A stretch of DNA of 20,000 bases from Pseudomonadota bacterium (GTDB lineage Bacteria; Pseudomonadota; Alphaproteobacteria; Paracaedibacterales; CAIOTO01). The stretch is taken from NCBI GenBank assembly GCA_040387495.1, contig JAZKDQ010000009.1:52465-72464 (forward strand). The letters are read 5' to 3'. A program made the translations under genes and the position numbers. Positions 2,422-19,657 of this stretch are shown piece after piece. Position 1 is the first letter of the stretch. Every line of letters begins with the position of its first letter. The notes beneath the pieces were generated by a model, which was not told the DNA's origin, did not search any database, and worked only from the letters and a program-made list of their open reading frames with translations.

Positions 2422-3309
2422 ATGGATAAAATGAAATTGAAAAGAGCTTTTTTAATTGCAATAACAACATGCACTATTAGTGCCCCAATTTTTACTATGA
2501 CAGATACGGCAGTAAATGAAACAAACTCATTAGGACTACAAGCAGCACTAGTGGCTCATGAACACTCCTATATAGAATTACTTGATACTCTTGCGCTATC
2601 TAAGGAAGCCGTTATACCTAAACACATCATTGCAACCGAAGCTGAGCTTAGATGCAGAGCATACATTAACGCGATGCATGCTTTATTTACAACTTATCCA
2701 GATCACGAGTTAGTTGTGGATTTCGAGGCGGCTAAGAGGGTGAATGATTATTTTGGGTATTTGCCTAATGGGTATTTTCCTGATCATTACCCCATACTTC
2801 CTTCTTCCCTTCGTAACATCTCAATTGTGGGTGAAAACCTCACAATCGTCGGAGATGAGTTTCTTACGCGCACATGCCTGAGATCCGTCACGATATCAAA
2901 CGGCGTCACAACTATTAGAAATAATTTTCTCATGTATGGCAGCCTGAGATCCATCGCAATCCCAAACAGCGTCACAACGATTGGAGATCGTTTTCTCTGG
3001 AATTGTCCATTTGTGACCTCTGTCACGATACCAAACGGCGTCACAACCATTGGGACGTATTTCCTCCACAATTGCTCAGGCCTGACATCAGTCACGATCC
3101 CAGACAGCGTTACAACCATTGGGGATTTTTTCCTCACCTATTGCCTAAGTCTGACATCAGTCACGATCCCAAGAAGATTCCAGGACTCTGTCCGTCATCT
3201 TCCAAGTACGGTTCAGATTATTTTTAATAACGACATGGGAACGTTAGAAAATAATGACATAGGAACGTTAGAAATTGACAAAAACCTTGGCAGGAATGAC
3301 GCTATCTAA
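2422..3309 (+). CDS. secreted BspA/TpLRR-type (LRR_5) leucine-rich repeat protein
   Basis: N-terminal signal-like segment (MKLKRAFLIAITTCTISAPIF) and tandem 22-23 aa repeats LTSVTIPxxVTTIGxxFLxxC. Confidence 0.88.
   Translation: MDKMKLKRAFLIAITTCTISAPIFTMTDTAVNETNSLGLQAALVAHEHSYIELLDTLALSKEAVIPKHIIATEAELRCRAYINAMHALFTTYPDHELVVDFEAAKRVNDYFGYLPNGYFPDHYPILPSSLRNISIVGENLTIVGDEFLTRTCLRSVTISNGVTTIRNNFLMYGSLRSIAIPNSVTTIGDRFLWNCPFVTSVTIPNGVTTIGTYFLHNCSGLTSVTIPDSVTTIGDFFLTYCLSLTSVTIPRRFQDSVRHLPSTVQIIFNNDMGTLENNDIGTLEIDKNLGRNDAI
2878..3171 (+). repeat. 66-69 bp LRR-coding tandem repeats (about 4.3 units)
   Basis: Units start at 2878, 2944, 3013, 3082 and 3151. CTGACATCAGTCACGATCCCA is exact at 3082 and 3151. 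Confidence 0.9.
3226..3273 (+). repeat. 24-bp tandem duplication (NNDMGTLE/NNDIGTLE)
   Basis: AATAACGACATGGGAACGTTAGAA followed by AATAATGACATAGGAACGTTAGAA, 22/24 identical. Confidence 0.9.
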
Positions 3310-3910: not shown

Positions 3911-4190
3911 ATCTTATCTTTATTAATAGCATATTTGAATGAATAGAGACAAGTCATACGGGATCATTACAGGTATGTTAAAAATTCTAGCCTACAATAT
4001 TCCATATATGACAACAATTATGAATAGTAATGCCCTTCACGTTATAAGCTATGGCATTCAATAAACCACATCACCTTGGATGCTCTCAGTAGCATTCAAT
4101 TTTAATAGCCCCCCCCCTAAATCACATTACGTCCCGGTGAAGCTATAGAAACTCTTGCTTAGAACGCCTAAAAAGACTTATGCAGAGAGT

Positions 4191-4391
4191 CTAATGAATT
4201 CTTTTTGAAAGTATAGATTGCGGATCAAAAAGGTCATTGATTTTTATGCCGGAATTCATTGAAAAATTTACAAGTGCAAAGTCAGCGGTTTCTTCTGGTA
4301 AGTCTGCATCCAATAAAAGCTGATGTGCCATTTTCTCTTGTGACATTAAGATGGCCAATTCGTTCTTGTTAATAAAGTTTGTAATGTTCAT
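4191..4391 (-). CDS. small hypothetical protein (66 aa) divergent from the luxR genes
   Basis: ATG preceded by a GAGAG RBS-like sequence; protein-like composition; no family recognised. Confidence 0.6.
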   Translation of the reverse strand: MNITNFINKNELAILMSQEKMAHQLLLDADLPEETADFALVNFSMNSGIKINDLFDPQSILSKRIH

Positions 4392-4703
4392 AACTGATCT
4401 CTCATATAATTTTTAATTTAGTTAGCTATTCCAATTTCATCAAAACTTAAATATTAAAAAAAATTTTAAGTAATAAATATTCTTATACATATTTTATTTG
4501 CTTATATCAACATATTTTTTTGCAATATACACTATTTTATTTTCCAAGTGTAATTAAATTGTATTTTGAAAGTTGGATGCATAAATGAAAGAATATTAGA
4601 AAAATCATGCAGTTTCAACTAATATTATTTTAGTTATTTTGAAATATATGTTATTTTTCATTTGCATTTAAAAATTGGAGATGCTAAATAGATTTTAGTT
4701 TAC

Positions 4704-5255
4704 ATGTGGTGGAACTATGTAGTGAATGTTTCTTGCAATTTTAAATACAATATTATATTAGATTCTTTGCGTAATGCAGATTCTATGAATAATTTAAATT
4801 CAACGTTCAAAAGTATTTGTGGATATTATGATATTGAAAAATTTGCCTTGAGTGAGCTTATTGGTATTAGAAATAAAAAGATGAATTTTAGCCTTTATTC
4901 AACCTACCCAGCTGAATGGACGCAGCATTATCAAAAAGAAAATTATCATCAGTTTGATCCCGTTTTCTTAAATATTGGGAAAATCCAGTTGCCATTTTTT
5001 TGGAATAGTAATTCTTTTAAGAAAATGAATTATCATCAAAAAAAGGTTTTCACTGAGGCATATGATTTTAATATAACGTATGGAACCACAATTCCATTGG
5101 CACCTGAGGGGAATCGGCACGCGTATCTTACTATCTTAAATGCAGAGGTTGCAAAAAGTTGGCCAATGATGAATAAATTAGCCCTTGCCGCAAATATGTA
5201 TTATTCGAGAAAGAGTTATTTTGAGTTCATAGAATTTAGGAAATTAATTAGTTAA
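4704..5255 (+). CDS. LuxR-family autoinducer-binding-domain-only protein (no HTH)
   Basis: YPAEWTQHY...YHQFDPV...PFFW...AYDFNITYGTTIP retains the W/Y/D/P/W/G AHL-pocket residues. It ends in TAA TAA before any HTH. The true start may be the GTG at 4722 (GGTGGA RBS). Confidence 0.9.
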   Translation: MWWNYVVNVSCNFKYNIILDSLRNADSMNNLNSTFKSICGYYDIEKFALSELIGIRNKKMNFSLYSTYPAEWTQHYQKENYHQFDPVFLNIGKIQLPFFWNSNSFKKMNYHQKKVFTEAYDFNITYGTTIPLAPEGNRHAYLTILNAEVAKSWPMMNKLALAANMYYSRKSYFEFIEFRKLIS

Positions 5256-5272
5256 TAATTTGGAGTTTTGCT

Positions 5273-5989
5273 TTGTTAATACTTTCGAAATATCAAATAA
5301 ATGGCCTATTGGAAGACATGTTTTGCGCAGACTCAGCGGATTCGTTGCAGTGTTCGTTGAAAAAATTATGTGGTGAATACTTTATTGATACTTTTGCGCT
5401 TGCTGCATTAACGGGACTTCGTAATGCAGAAGCTGCCTTTGATGTGTTTGATAATTACCCAATTGTATGGAAAAAACGATATATTGAGAAAAAGCATTAT
5501 TTAAACGATCCAGTTTTTTCCGATTTAAACAAAACAAACCTTCCTTTTTGCTGGAATGTTGAAAAATTTAAAGATATAACAAAAAACCAAGAAAAATTTC
5601 TTTATGAAGCACATGATTTTGGAGTAAATGTTGGAACAACCATTCCTTTATTGCCAGATGGAAAATTTAACGGCTTTATAACGTTACTTGGTGCAAATAT
5701 TCATCATCCGGAGCTCTTATATATATTTTCCCTGGCTGCTAATTTTTATCTAAAACAAAAGAAGCATTTTGATTTGCAACAGCAGTTCAAATCATTAACT
5801 AAACAAGAAATGAAAGTATTGTTACTAAAGGCAGATGGCCTCAGCGTTAAAATAATTTCTTCAGAATTGCACTTGTCAGATGCTACAGTTATTTTTCATT
5901 TAAAGAACCTAAGAAAGAAATTAAATTCAGTTACCACTGAGCAAGCTATTTTTAAATTTGGTTTAGCACGTGGAGATAATTTTTTGTAG
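5273..5989 (+). CDS. luxR: LuxR-family AHL-responsive transcriptional regulator
   Basis: YPIVWKKRY...DPV...PFCW...GTTIP ligand domain plus a LuxR HTH (LTKQEMKVLLLKADGLSVKIISSELHLSDATVIFHLKNLRKKL). TTG start with GGAG RBS. Confidence 0.95.
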   Translation: MLILSKYQINGLLEDMFCADSADSLQCSLKKLCGEYFIDTFALAALTGLRNAEAAFDVFDNYPIVWKKRYIEKKHYLNDPVFSDLNKTNLPFCWNVEKFKDITKNQEKFLYEAHDFGVNVGTTIPLLPDGKFNGFITLLGANIHHPELLYIFSLAANFYLKQKKHFDLQQQFKSLTKQEMKVLLLKADGLSVKIISSELHLSDATVIFHLKNLRKKLNSVTTEQAIFKFGLARGDNFL

Positions 5990-5994
5990 GTGTA

Positions 5995-6654
5995 TTAGGG
6001 AAGAGTCAGTGATGTGTGGAGCGAAGTATGAATGTTGAAATCATTCGCATTATTGCTTAGTTTGTTTATTTTCAGACTTTTTGCTATCTTATCGTAAACA
6101 TGGCTCATTGGCTGAAATGCCCAAACATCTATGTCCTCCTGATTAATCTTTGCGGAAGAAACTACATATGTAAGTAATCCATATTTCTTGCACAGTTTTG
6201 TTAAAGATGGATAAGTCAGTGTTAAGAAGCACTCTACTCTTTCAATAGTTAATCCAAAATCTATTAATCCAGCCATGATAGATTTTGCAACTTTTTGGTG
6301 CATATGCACCTTGTAGTCTTCGCTTGCACTAATATCCACAGAATATCGACTTAATTCCCAATATCCTGGCCGTTTAAATTCATCAAGGTTAGGCAGCGTA
6401 AATTTAAAGGGTCCATCAAACATACAATCATTGATCATTTCAACAAAGCGTATGCAACCACGAATAATTCCGTTGTCATCTTTGTATATTAAATAATACA
6501 TATTTTTTTCGTCATATTGATCACGTTCCATCCCGTTTTCAACAGAAACATCCCATTTAAGACTTTCATAAAAAACACGATAACGTAGACGATACATACT
6601 ATCAAGGTCTTGCCGATAGAGATCATATTCTCCTGGTTGAATCAGATACAACAT
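5995..6654 (-). CDS. luxI: acyl-homoserine-lactone synthase (LuxI family)
   Basis: MYRLRYRVF...LKW...GMERDQYD...GCIRF...WELSRY motifs. AAGGGAAG RBS. Convergent with luxR, 5-bp gap. Confidence 0.96.
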   Translation of the reverse strand: MLYLIQPGEYDLYRQDLDSMYRLRYRVFYESLKWDVSVENGMERDQYDEKNMYYLIYKDDNGIIRGCIRFVEMINDCMFDGPFKFTLPNLDEFKRPGYWELSRYSVDISASEDYKVHMHQKVAKSIMAGLIDFGLTIERVECFLTLTYPSLTKLCKKYGLLTYVVSSAKINQEDIDVWAFQPMSHVYDKIAKSLKINKLSNNANDFNIHTSLHTSLTLP

Positions 6655-6758
6655 ATTAGCTTCCCTTAATTATATGTACTTCAATATTTTATATAGTTCG
6701 AAATAAATATATTTCAATGCCTATTCAATATTAATATCGAATAAATTAAATTATAAAT

Positions 6759-6778
6759 AGCTATCAAATATGATAGGT
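6759..6778 (-). promoter_or_regulatory. lux-box-like palindrome 1 (luxI promoter)
   Basis: Minus strand reads ACCTATCATATTTGATAGCT, a 20-bp imperfect palindrome about 105 bp upstream of luxI. Confidence 0.75.
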
Positions 6779-6911
6779 TAATACAAAATTTATTATGTTG
6801 ATGTATAATTCACTTTTTCTTAATGATAAATGTTAATATTTTGTAATTTAATAATTACAATTTACAATGATGATATTTAAAATATTCTTATAAAAGGAGT
6901 TTTAGTCAAAA

Positions 6912-6931
6912 ACCTATTATATTTGATAGGT
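6912..6931 (+). promoter_or_regulatory. lux-box-like palindrome 2 (divergent promoter)
   Basis: ACCTATTATATTTGATAGGT, 18/20 identical to box 1 in inverted orientation. It abuts TTGTTC-N17-TAGAAA (6931-6959). Confidence 0.75.
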
Positions 6932-6992
6932 TGTTCATGATCAGAAAAGAGTGTAGAAATCCTTTATCAACCAATCAGAAAAAGATATTTTT

Positions 6993-7211
6993 GTGTCAGA
7001 AAAAAACAAAAATTCAACTTACAAAGCAACAAGCACGCAAACATCAAGAGATAGTGCTCAGGAGTCCTTATTTTCGACTCTTAGTTTTTTAAATACATTA
7101 CTAATAAAAAAATTAATTAAAAACGAATCATTTTCTGGGTGTTGTATTGATTTAACACGCATAGAACATTTTGCGTGTTCGAGGAATTTAATCGAAAAGC
7201 TATTTTTATAA
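6993..7211 (+). CDS. possible small hypothetical protein (72 aa) directly downstream of lux box 2
   Basis: GTG-start ORF just after the predicted promoter; weak RBS; no family recognised. Confidence 0.3.
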   Translation: MSEKNKNSTYKATSTQTSRDSAQESLFSTLSFLNTLLIKKLIKNESFSGCCIDLTRIEHFACSRNLIEKLFL

Positions 7212-7302
7212 GATAAATATTAAAACTAACGAGCATCATGCTTATTGTCTTTTGAAATATTAGCATGTGAATTTCTTTTAGAAGGTTTTTGAAATAGTTT
7301 TT

Positions 7303-8450
7303 ATGGGATGCAAAAAAATGGCAACGATCGCAAACAATGAAATTAAAATGAATAAAGAAGAACGTTTGTTGGCAAGTGTCATAATGCACGCGCCCACGCC
7401 GGTTGCCTTGTTTGATACACACATGCGTTGTTTGAATGTGAGCAGCGTATGGGCTAAAGAATTAGGATTTGGTGCAGATGTAGAATTTATAGGCAAATCA
7501 CACCATGATGTTTTTCCTAAGCAACTAATCCAGCACCAAGACATATATGCAGAATGTTTAAAAGGAAGTCCTTACAGAGGAAGAAAAAAATACATTGTAC
7601 CTATAAATGATAAACACATTTTGTTGGCAATGAGCATTACTCCATGGAAAAATGCCGATGACTCAGTTGGGGGGCTTATTGTATATGTAAATGAGTTATC
7701 CGAAAGAAATGAGTCAACTGTTCATATTAATGAAATGATAAATAATTTGAAGCGCTCAAATGTAGAACTAGAATGTTTTGCATATGTTTGCTCACACGAC
7801 TTAAAAGAGCCTCTACGAAATATATCGTGTTTTATACAACTTTTACTGAAACATAATTCAGCTTGTTTTGATGAAATATCGATTAATTACATTGGGCATG
7901 TTTTAAAAGGTGTTGACCGTATGTGCTCATTGATTAAAAACATTCTTTTATATTCACGTGTATCTACACAAAATATAATTACGGTATTGTTGATATAAAT
8001 AGTGTTTTAGATGACGTGAAAAAGAATTTAATGTTTAAATTACAAGAAGCAAAAGCAGAAATTCATATTGCTGAAATGCCGAATATCATAGGGAACACGA
8101 CTCAAATCAATCAACTTTTTGCAAATTTAATTGATAACGCAATCAAGTATAAATCAGATCAGCCTTTAATTATTGATATTTCTGCTAGAGATACAGGATC
8201 ATTGTGGGAAATAAGTATCAAAGATAATGGAATTGGTATTGCAGAAGAACATCAGTCAAATGTTTTTAACATGTTTAAACAACTGGATAGCAGAACTCAT
8301 TGTGATAGTTCTGGCGTAGGTCTTGCCATATGTAAGAAAATTGTGAAGGCTCATGATGGAGATATCTTTGTCCGATCAAATTCTGCCGGAGGTTGTGATT
8401 TTGTATTCACTTTGCCAAAAATAAGTAAAATGAAAAATGCAGCAACGTGA
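7303..8450 (+). pseudogene. PAS-domain sensor histidine kinase split by a 1-nt frameshift (pseudogene or sequencing error)
   Basis: ORF 7303-7998 carries a PAS domain (HAPTPVALFDTHMR...IGKSHHDVFP) and the H-box FAYVCSHDLKEPLR. ORF 8016-8450 carries N, G1, F and G2 boxes (NLIDNAIKY, DNGIGI, VFNMF, GVGLAICKKIV). The second frame is open from 7938. Confidence 0.88.
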
Positions 8451-8527
8451 ATGTATTTTTTTGTTAATCAAAATTTAGCAAGTTTAATGACATAATAAAC
8501 CATGTAATAAATTCATACATGTATTAA

Positions 8528-18522: not shown

Positions 18523-19657
18523 ATGAAGTATATATCCACACATCTTTGCGCATTATTAATTCTGACTGGTTTTTGCTCTGCCTCTTCTGCTATGCAAAAA
18601 GACGTTGTTGAAGATCTAACAGTCAGTCTTGCAGAAACTTCCTTAACGCCCGTCTCAACACGCACGGAAGAAGAGCAAGTAAAACTTAATAACGATTTAT
18701 ATACAGCGTGCAAGGGAGCCGACCCTGTGGTGGAAGGACAGCCTCGAGTTGTCGATCTATCACGTGTGACAGAACTGCTTGATCAAGGCGCAGACATAAA
18801 TACGCGGGGAATAGGATTTAATACTCCACTGCACGTAGCATGTTCTTCTGGTTTCGAAAATCTTGTGGACGTATTACTTGGTTACAATAACATTAGGATT
18901 GACGCCCAAAACGATAAACGTTTTTCAGCATTGTATATGGCAAGTGGAAATGGCTTTGAAGGTATTGTTCGAAAATTACTTGGTAAGGGTGCAAATCCAG
19001 AACTCCAAGATGTGAATGGAATCTCGGCTCTCCATTCGGCGGTTCAATTTAATCGTTTAGGTACAGCTACGTTATTAATTGATGCTGGTGCAATTGTTGA
19101 TTCCCCAAATAATGAAGGCGTAAGACCCATACATACAGCACTTCATGCTGAACCTTTAAACCTCGATCTTGATCAATTGTTGCTCAGTAATAAATCGGAT
19201 TTAAGTAAACCAGATGATACAAGCGTGACACCACTCAACATTATATTCACTTCTAAAAACATAGATTTGCACTTATTGATCATTAACGCCGATGTAAATG
19301 AAGACGTTAGAAGGGCATTTGAGCCATTCCTTTTATATGCAATGTTCTGTGTAAATAAAGATATACGTATCTCCCAGGCACTGCTCGCATATTGTGCTTA
19401 AAAATGGCTGGACGCCACTCCATTTTGCATGTGGCATGGGCTGCATGGATATTGCCGAGTTCTTGATACGTGAAGGTGCTGATTTACAAGCTGAATCAAT
19501 GCCCGATAATAAAGAGATAATACGTACACCGCTGGAGTGCATTACAAAACCTGAGCATACGAAACATTTGCTTGGTGTTGTAGCTAGATTGCGTACTGGT
19601 AGAAATGCAGAAGGTGTAAGTAATGCTGTTGATGACGGTGACCAAGTGACACTTTAA
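18523..19657 (+). pseudogene. secreted ankyrin-repeat protein interrupted near 19400
   Basis: Signal peptide and repeats TPLHVAC, SALYMAS, SALHSAV and RPIHTAL. TAA at 19399-19401, then NGWTPLHFAC continues in another frame (19394-19657). Confidence 0.8.

Follow-up and report, generated by a model that had tools for sequence, protein, structure and literature searches.

A predicted acyl-homoserine lactone circuit and its candidate toxin target in a Holosporales-type alphaproteobacterium

We analysed a 20,000-nucleotide stretch (the window) of contig JAZKDQ010000009.1 from a Pseudomonadota bacterium (assembly GCA_040387495.1), in which a block inserted between atpH and zapE holds a gene for a LuxI-type acyl-homoserine lactone (AHL) synthase, a full luxR, a second luxR without a helix-turn-helix (HTH) domain, and two lux-type boxes (Table 1). 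On balance, we lean towards reading these genes as an AHL circuit that would count kin inside a host and arm an interbacterial toxin, damped by a partner resembling CerN or TrlR. The parts are familiar; what is new is their setting, breadth and wiring. The genome under study (G000; 1.66 Mb, completeness 99.9%) was compared with relatives in a sample of 62 genomes of its order (49 of high quality; 20 genera). Other G numbers denote relatives, L loci, C contigs and f families of the order.

A preliminary description had placed the block in a probable intracellular symbiont, and the genome agrees with this. The assembly contains no 16S gene, and we relied on GTDB kinship labels and source names for its taxonomy. 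LuxI proteins identical to those of the congener G002 carry the source label Candidatus (Ca.) Paracaedibacteraceae, a family within Holosporales, and family f7 of the same order contains Ca. Odyssella thessalonicensis and Ca. Odyssella acanthamoebae, cytoplasmic symbionts of Acanthamoeba (PMC11909080). G000 has three near full-length matches to the TLC nucleotide translocase. We infer that it is a Holosporales-type energy parasite living intracellularly.

The luxI-luxR cassette and its boxes

All elements of the cassette listed in the preliminary description (small open reading frame (ORF), HTH-less luxR, luxR, convergent luxI and twin boxes) were recovered by ORF calling, Pfam and palindrome searches. 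The synthase gene is intact and encodes the catalytic and S-adenosylmethionine (SAM)-binding residues conserved in the LuxI family: R24, F28, W34, E43, D45, D48, R69, E100, S102 and R103 are all present and nearly invariant among 19 clade members. The protein aligns with LasI, EsaI and further synthase structures, and shares 39-58% identity with its own subfamily and mostly ≤35% with sequences outside it. Synthases using acyl-acyl carrier protein (acyl-ACP) have a basic helix at LasI residues 146-173 (PMC4234381). Residues K153, K156 and K157 of the G000 protein fall on this helix and vary within the clade; the profile aligns through the helix for LasI, 3p2f and EsaI and stops near position 136 for 5w8a and 6wn0.

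The full LuxR combines an autoinducer-binding and a GerE HTH domain with all six pocket residues (W66, Y70, D79, P80, W94 and G121) and a linked luxI, and matches the structures of RhlR, QscR, LasR, SdiA and TraR. Judged from these genes, a working AHL circuit in G000 is likely.

The short LuxR is 35% identical to its full-length neighbour and keeps the same W-Y-D-P-W-G pocket set (as given in PMC11655674). It thus presents the anatomy of CerN and TrlR, namely a ligand domain with an intact pocket, no HTH and a position beside a full LuxR. Its counterpart in a 92%-identical ENA relative is likewise short, and further short forms stand beside the cassettes of G002 (split), G007, G016, G042 and G048. 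Short forms cluster with the full LuxR of their own family (support 0.87-0.90) and apparently evolved independently in f1 and in f8. The grouping points to repeated origin, which in turn suggests selection. The earlier idea of a decoy LuxR is plausible given the precedents of CerN and TrlR, and by analogy with them the short LuxR would probably be inhibitory; it may also act as a ligand sink or a positive partner. Modelled as a complex without alignments, the ligand domain of LuxR and the short LuxR scored 0.00; this gave no verdict and was used neither way.

The canonical lux box ends in ACCT...AGGT. A scan of the whole genome for the box of the cassette returned three sites at one mismatch, none at two and nine at three, and the boxes are beyond chance. 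Twin boxes precede luxI in near-identical form in G007 (L024, L025) and also in G016; they are degenerate in G002, G042 and G048, and no close box was found before luxI in f5 or f7. From the boxes of G000 and G007 we then derived a pattern and searched all 62 genomes with it, using the reversed pattern as control. In the 12 genomes carrying this LuxI clade it found 27 sites (4 of them used in writing the pattern) against 3 for the control, compared with 21 against 21 in the other 50 genomes. Of the 27 sites, 20 are intergenic, and several precede solo luxR genes. The twin boxes of the preliminary description are therefore real, being rare in the genome, conserved before luxI in relatives and enriched with the LuxI clade; with fair assurance, they would be read by the LuxR encoded beside them. 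A sigma-70 scan of 6600-7350 gave 7 sites against 6.4 expected.

In other families the boxed genes include solo luxR, a receiver protein, an HD/RelA-hydrolase-like gene and a HigB-like gene. The receiver is an atypical protein of 333-337 amino acids (aa) in G048, G051, G052 and G053 (L125, L128, L130, L131) that matches PDB 6SY9 (E 1e-46), which we take to be LqsR. Confirmation of this identity in print was sought and none was found (0 occurrences in PMC10653808). At L118 of G016, a box precedes genes for an amidinotransferase-like protein and a LuxN/LqsS-like kinase. In these relatives AHL may feed an Lqs-like network; G000 has no such receiver gene. A weak box beside the G002 cassette (L023:3506-5705) is followed by genes for an alpha/beta hydrolase, a HATPase-only protein and an XRE-receiver protein; the hydrolase could be a signal-degrading enzyme.

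Further variation was seen among the cassette proteins of the order. Tandem luxI-luxI pairs occur in G002, G007, G053 and G054, with the two copies in different subclades, which suggests two signals or a two-enzyme synthase. Three LuxI-clade relatives (P0032, P0033 and P0034; 374-420 aa) have long N-terminal extensions, two of them with signal-peptide-like starts, and are possibly secreted synthase derivatives. AHL-binding LuxR domains are expanded in G042 (11 matches), G014 (7) and G048 (6), in genomes of 1.5-1.9 Mb.

Table 1 Features of the inserted block (window coordinates) and of the candidate target locus
Feature	Position	Strand	Remarks
Inserted block between atpH and zapE	3954-8485 (approximate limits)		DNA similarity to G001, G002 and G003 stops at 3937-3953 and restarts at 8486
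66-aa ORF	4191-4391	-	Divergent from the two luxR genes; not conserved with the module
LuxR ligand-binding domain without HTH, 183 aa	4704-5255	+	PF03472 81 bits only, no GerE
Full LuxR-type AHL receptor, 238 aa from TTG	5273-5989	+	PF03472 71 bits, GerE PF00196 49 bits
LuxI-type AHL synthase, 219 aa	5995-6654	-	Convergent on luxR; PF00765 102.7 bits (cut-off 24), no stop
lux-type box 1, imperfect 20-bp palindrome	6759-6778	.	104 nt upstream of the luxI start
lux-type box 2, imperfect 20-bp palindrome	6912-6931	.	257 nt upstream of luxI, towards the kinase
Kinase, N-terminal piece (PAS_4 + HisKA)	7303-7998	+	Pfam
Kinase, C-terminal piece (HATPase_c), other frame	8016-8450	+	Pfam
Toxin locus L085	G000:C14:64887-76908		2,593-aa DUF637-type toxin, 88-aa immunity-like ORF, adjacent Tn3 transposase and resolvase

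A candidate polymorphic-toxin target

Outside the island, the only strong box of G000 lies at C14:73040, 104 bp before the large toxin gene and its small downstream ORF; two box-like sites within ORFs (on C1 and C13) were left out of the target count. By a matrix trained on 12 luxI/luxR-adjacent boxes alone, this box scores 22.6 bits and ranks third in the genome. For comparison, 20 shuffled matrices gave 0.05 sites per genome at ≥20 bits, and 3 of 1,313 G000 ORFs have a site at ≥17 bits.

Homologues of the C14 protein share its body, and the similarity ends at residue 2096-2259 of 2593, beyond which the C-termini are unrelated. Relatives carry WHH/LHH nuclease tips with SUKH immunity genes (G006, G009, G051) and DUF637 or PT-VENN domains. 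The shared body, variable tips and SUKH genes mark a polymorphic toxin family, to which the C14 gene conforms in its shared N-terminal body, variable tip and small downstream ORF. The same toxin/Tn3 arrangement is found in G001:C27. Leads for the G000 tip in the Atlas, all under 0.9, were to MafB/EndoU/CdiA-CT clusters; a single-sequence fold of the tip was useless (predicted local distance difference test score of 35). A search with ShlB for a TpsB partner returned no match anywhere, controls included. A type VI secretion system sheath gene was found in G000.

We examined 11 toxin loci of the order, in 8 of which the start could be placed. Five of these eight have a box of 19-28 bits (G000, G001 twice, G006 and G051), and three do not (G002, G005 and G054). 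Conservation of the toxin promoter begins at the box. The toxin of G051, from another family, has a different promoter in which the box is kept, and that of G006 has the box twice and inverted, as at luxI. This promoter footprint suggests that the toxin is probably a target of the circuit.

SAM supply, the broken kinase and counter-evidence

The question arises where the synthase would obtain SAM. No MetK was found in G000 by Pfam or tblastn, and the enzyme is missing from 15 of the 20 genomes of the order that have luxI. Signal synthesis therefore probably needs host SAM. Rickettsia and Chlamydia take up SAM through EamA/drug-metabolite transporter (DMT) proteins (PMC3104491), and an extra EamA/DMT paralogue adjoins all four f7 cassettes (L033, L034, L035 and L083; G034, G038 and G059). 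These cassette-linked copies are 47-62% identical to the one at L035, compared with mostly ≤42% for other copies, and f10 cassettes adjoin another EamA paralogue. The cassette-linked EamA is a candidate SAM importer or AHL exporter. G000 itself has four EamA genes, but the order-wide EamA orthologue is missing.

The PAS histidine kinase at the end of the block had been proposed as a phosphorelay output. We found it frameshifted near 7970-7975, with HisKA and HATPase in different frames, which leaves no intact output; the preliminary description of a complete island thus holds for the AHL core and fails for the kinase. Five intact paralogues (648-672 aa; 38-51% identical, with 38-43% for the PAS_4 + HisKA piece) with an extra N-terminal PAS domain are encoded on C10 (three), C4 and C8. 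The three on C10 (G000:C10:44217-52120) are tandem PAS-PAS histidine kinases beside an XRE-receiver gene, and theirs is the source family of the broken kinase. Both truncated products occur in NCBI and Logan sources; the frameshift rests on protein look-ups. An ENA relative, P0201, crosses the junction in one frame at 96% identity, which makes programmed frameshifting unlikely; it may be broken elsewhere, being called from just after the phospho-accepting histidine. A 72-aa ORF at 6993-7211 was treated as spurious: it has no family and no homologue among the loci compared, and the N-terminal PAS of the paralogues has left no remnant there. A search for related kinase loci among metagenome contigs confirmed nothing.

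The proposed sequence of events is as follows. LuxI would make an AHL from SAM and, perhaps, acyl-ACP. With SAM presumably imported from the host, the signal would be made mainly within the host cell and would accumulate in this closed compartment as kin multiply. LuxR-AHL would then bind the 20-bp box, the twin copies giving feedback on luxI and the C14 copy switching the toxin and its immunity-like partner. This last link is drawn from a footprint in two families; its sign could be either, activation being more likely. The HTH-less LuxR would bind AHL, LuxR or both and so raise the threshold, as CerN or TrlR does, and the kinase would be a broken passenger. For the lysis or differentiation timing suggested earlier we found no support in G000, where the predicted target is a polymorphic toxin.

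Several observations weigh against this proposal. Three of the five boxed toxin promoters lie in G001 (95% complete, 240 contigs) and G006 (75%), in which no luxI or AHL-binding LuxR was found, while G002 and G054 have luxI and luxR but unboxed toxin genes (best 5.5 and 10.2 bits). Because four of the five share a single homologous promoter within one genus, the independent lineages number two and not five. The box stands 41 bp (G000) or 39 bp (G001) past the stop of the Tn3 transposase and is followed by a T run, as in a possible terminator, and neither the G000 toxin tip nor the 88-aa ORF has a Pfam domain, leaving the tip with no recognised toxin domain. Parts of such cassettes do decay, as the frameshift in the neighbouring kinase and the split short luxR of G002 show. 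Finally, no SAM importer was identified in G000, and without SAM the synthase would idle.

The points concerning the toxin would fit a box that is read by another regulator, for example an XRE-receiver protein, or that is a terminator, the circuit working without the toxin as its quorum target. An XRE-receiver gene lies beside the G002 cassette and upstream of the G006 toxin, a hairpin with a T run follows the transposase in G000 and G001, and two genomes without detected luxR have boxed toxin promoters. However, box enrichment tracks the LuxI clade and not the genus, and the box is conserved without transposase or T run in G006, in G001 (C202) and in G051. The inverted doubling in G006 is a further point against it, and the mismatches of the box would break an RNA stem. 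We consider this explanation unlikely.

Slightly less probable still is a decaying or idle cassette, whose intact-looking genes neither make nor use a signal in G000. Such a state would accord with the frameshifted kinase, the lack of MetK and of an identified SAM carrier, the failure to find luxI in five of six congeners, the single strong target outside the island and the luxR fragments in G004. On the other hand, luxI, luxR and the two boxes show no damage, every key residue being present, and many relatives without MetK also keep these genes intact, which fits SAM import. Moreover, the G000 and G002 LuxI proteins are 51-52% identical, which resembles the divergence of ZapE (51-53%), and no stop has been gained.

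Origin of the cassette and relation to known systems

The preliminary description had regarded LuxI/LuxR systems as untypical of such bacteria and had proposed lateral acquisition. Neither view is borne out. Within the order, luxI is present in 20 of 62 genomes (18 of the 49 of high quality; 9 of 20 genera) and AHL-binding domains in 29 of 62. The order's LuxI sequences fall into two lineages restricted to it: one of 19 sequences from f1, f6, f8 and f10, including G000 (SH-like approximate likelihood ratio test (SH-aLRT) 93-97; quick tree), and one of 9 sequences from f5 and f7 (SH-aLRT 96). Within both, LuxI clusters largely by family, the G000 protein grouping with those of G002 and G007 from the same family (SH-aLRT 93; FastTree 0.993). 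A single origin of the order's LuxI was rejected (approximately unbiased test, p-AU 0.013) on a quick LG+G4 tree of 28 order rows against 30 outside representatives, with G038c left out. Only 10 of 1.84 billion representatives reach E 1e-30 with the G000 LuxI, and beyond the clade most full-length matches are ≤35% identical; a search for related luxI loci among genome contigs confirmed nothing.

Cassette position differs in nearly every genome, and in G007 the contigs of both cassettes are 11-15 kb long, with a TraA-like relaxase or a resolvase next to the cassette (L024, L025). Together with the Tn3 element next to the toxin in G000 and G001, this would be expected if the cassette served mobile-element quorum sensing of the TraI/TraR kind, counting plasmid or transposon copies and stranded on the chromosome here. 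We judge this very unlikely, given that the G000 block contains no integrase, transposase or terminal repeats, that f5, f8 and f10 cassettes keep chromosomal neighbours within families, and that the boxed genes are mostly regulators and toxins rather than transfer genes. In f5 (L029, L030 and L032), luxI is divergent from a LuxR-type domain, a RadC/JAB gene and an HlyD gene, an arrangement conserved in the family.

The block is inserted at a site that is empty in G002 (zapE-atpH gap of ~270 bp) and holds an unrelated 509-aa gene in G001, as the preliminary description would predict. It is also AT-rich, as described, with a guanine-cytosine (GC) content of 0.305 against a genome mean of 0.394 (standard deviation 0.023), below all 3,162 windows of the same length. 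The low value is explained by intergenic DNA and amino-acid make-up, GC being 0.18-0.24 in the gaps and 0.33 in coding sequence. GC at third codon positions is ordinary for luxI (41st percentile) and the short luxR (44th), and the native kinase paralogues are equally AT-rich. Low GC as proof of foreign origin was ruled out on these grounds. Of the usual marks of a recent island, atypical composition and absence from the site in relatives are present; mobility genes or terminal repeats are lacking, and the nearest homologues are in the same family and order rather than outside the lineage. Recent import from a free-living alphaproteobacterium, with the kinase as an output that times lysis or differentiation, to which the lowest-GC stretch of the genome and the empty site in congeners might point, is largely refuted and most improbable, since close outside homologues are few, all placed clade members belong to this order, the third-position GC is ordinary and the broken kinase has its paralogues in a native family. 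As far as sequence comparison can tell, the block represents a module long resident in the lineage, and mobile within it, that was inserted locally.

Nor is the block chimeric: its LuxI groups with same-family copies, and the small ORF, the short LuxR, the kinase and zapE all recur in an ENA relative at 92-96% identity. The small 66-aa ORF has no Pfam or NCBIfam match and no usable match in the Atlas; it is present in one of the 62 genomes, its own, and a near-identical 66-aa ENA protein exists. Elsewhere in the window, a second insertion in the atp operon is an ORF for a BspA-type leucine-rich-repeat protein (2422-3309, + strand) that separates atpH from atpA, direct neighbours in G002 and G003, and an ankyrin-repeat gene (18523-19657) is apparently split into two overlapping ORFs (292 and 87 aa).

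In comparison with LuxI/LuxR systems such as LasI/R, TofI, EsaI and TraI/R, the G000 genes share the synthase motifs, the receptor pocket and HTH, the convergent pair and the 20-bp palindrome before luxI. They differ in forming their own subfamily in obligate intracellular symbionts, in the frequent tandem luxI-luxI of relatives and in the probable need for host SAM. The short LuxR matches the HTH-less proteins of the CerN-CerM-CerR-CerI system of Cereibacter sphaeroides and of Agrobacterium (TrlR), which likewise have an intact pocket and precede a full LuxR and luxI; CerN and CerM are 31% identical (PMC11655674), compared with 35% for the G000 pair. The likeness lies in anatomy; no link to CtrA was seen here.

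AHL sensing by SogI/SogR is known from Sodalis glossinidius and is kept in an obligate weevil symbiont (PMC2568817). Sodalis, however, is a gammaproteobacterial insect symbiont with an oxidative stress regulon, whereas G000, with its predicted toxin target, belongs to an ancient lineage of protist symbionts. Legionella Lqs also exerts quorum control inside amoebae, but through alpha-hydroxyketones and sensor kinases instead of AHL and LuxR. The toxin resembles known polymorphic toxins (FilH/DUF637/PT-VENN) in its size, variable tip, adjacent immunity-like gene and a type VI secretion system in the genome. Polymorphic toxin systems have been described in this family in Ca. Bodocaedibacter (PMC8163844), and intraspecific ones in Odyssella (PMC3482391); the accessible sections name no regulator for them, whereas a lux-type box precedes the G000 toxin. 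AHL control of toxin-immunity pairs has a precedent in Burkholderia thailandensis (PMC4868534).

A 2026 survey reported near-complete loss of LuxI/LuxR in intracellular taxa, and its accessible text does not mention Holosporales (10.64898/2026.01.11.698852). Among papers on Holosporales and its genera outside subscription journals, we found no account of a LuxI/LuxR system; a 2025 review contains no occurrence of quorum, lux, autoinducer or homoserine, and the accessible part of the Bodocaedibacter paper none of quorum. RefSeq already annotates AHL synthases in Ca. Odyssella, and two named Acanthamoeba symbionts carry luxI-luxR cassettes. The survey view of loss in intracellular lineages is thus qualified. 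More tentatively, and with less confidence than we place in the G000 circuit, obligate Holosporales-type endosymbionts of protists might widely use AHLs made from host SAM as a master switch for within-host competition and exit, with two old LuxI lineages, repeated HTH-less partners, and a conserved box leading to polymorphic toxins (f1, f10), an LqsR-like receiver (f8, f10) and a (p)ppGpp-hydrolase-like gene (f8).

For asking how obligate intracellular alphaproteobacteria of protists gauge their own density, and what times their fighting or departure, no genetics is available. A diffusible AHL offers a handle that needs none, the predicted box defines a concrete regulon, and the toxin link would supply a regulator for the polymorphic toxins proposed to drive competition or host addiction in this family. 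On the more tentative, order-wide reading, the signal would tell of kin density and of residence in a fed host alike, in bacteria from which quorum sensing was presumed lost.

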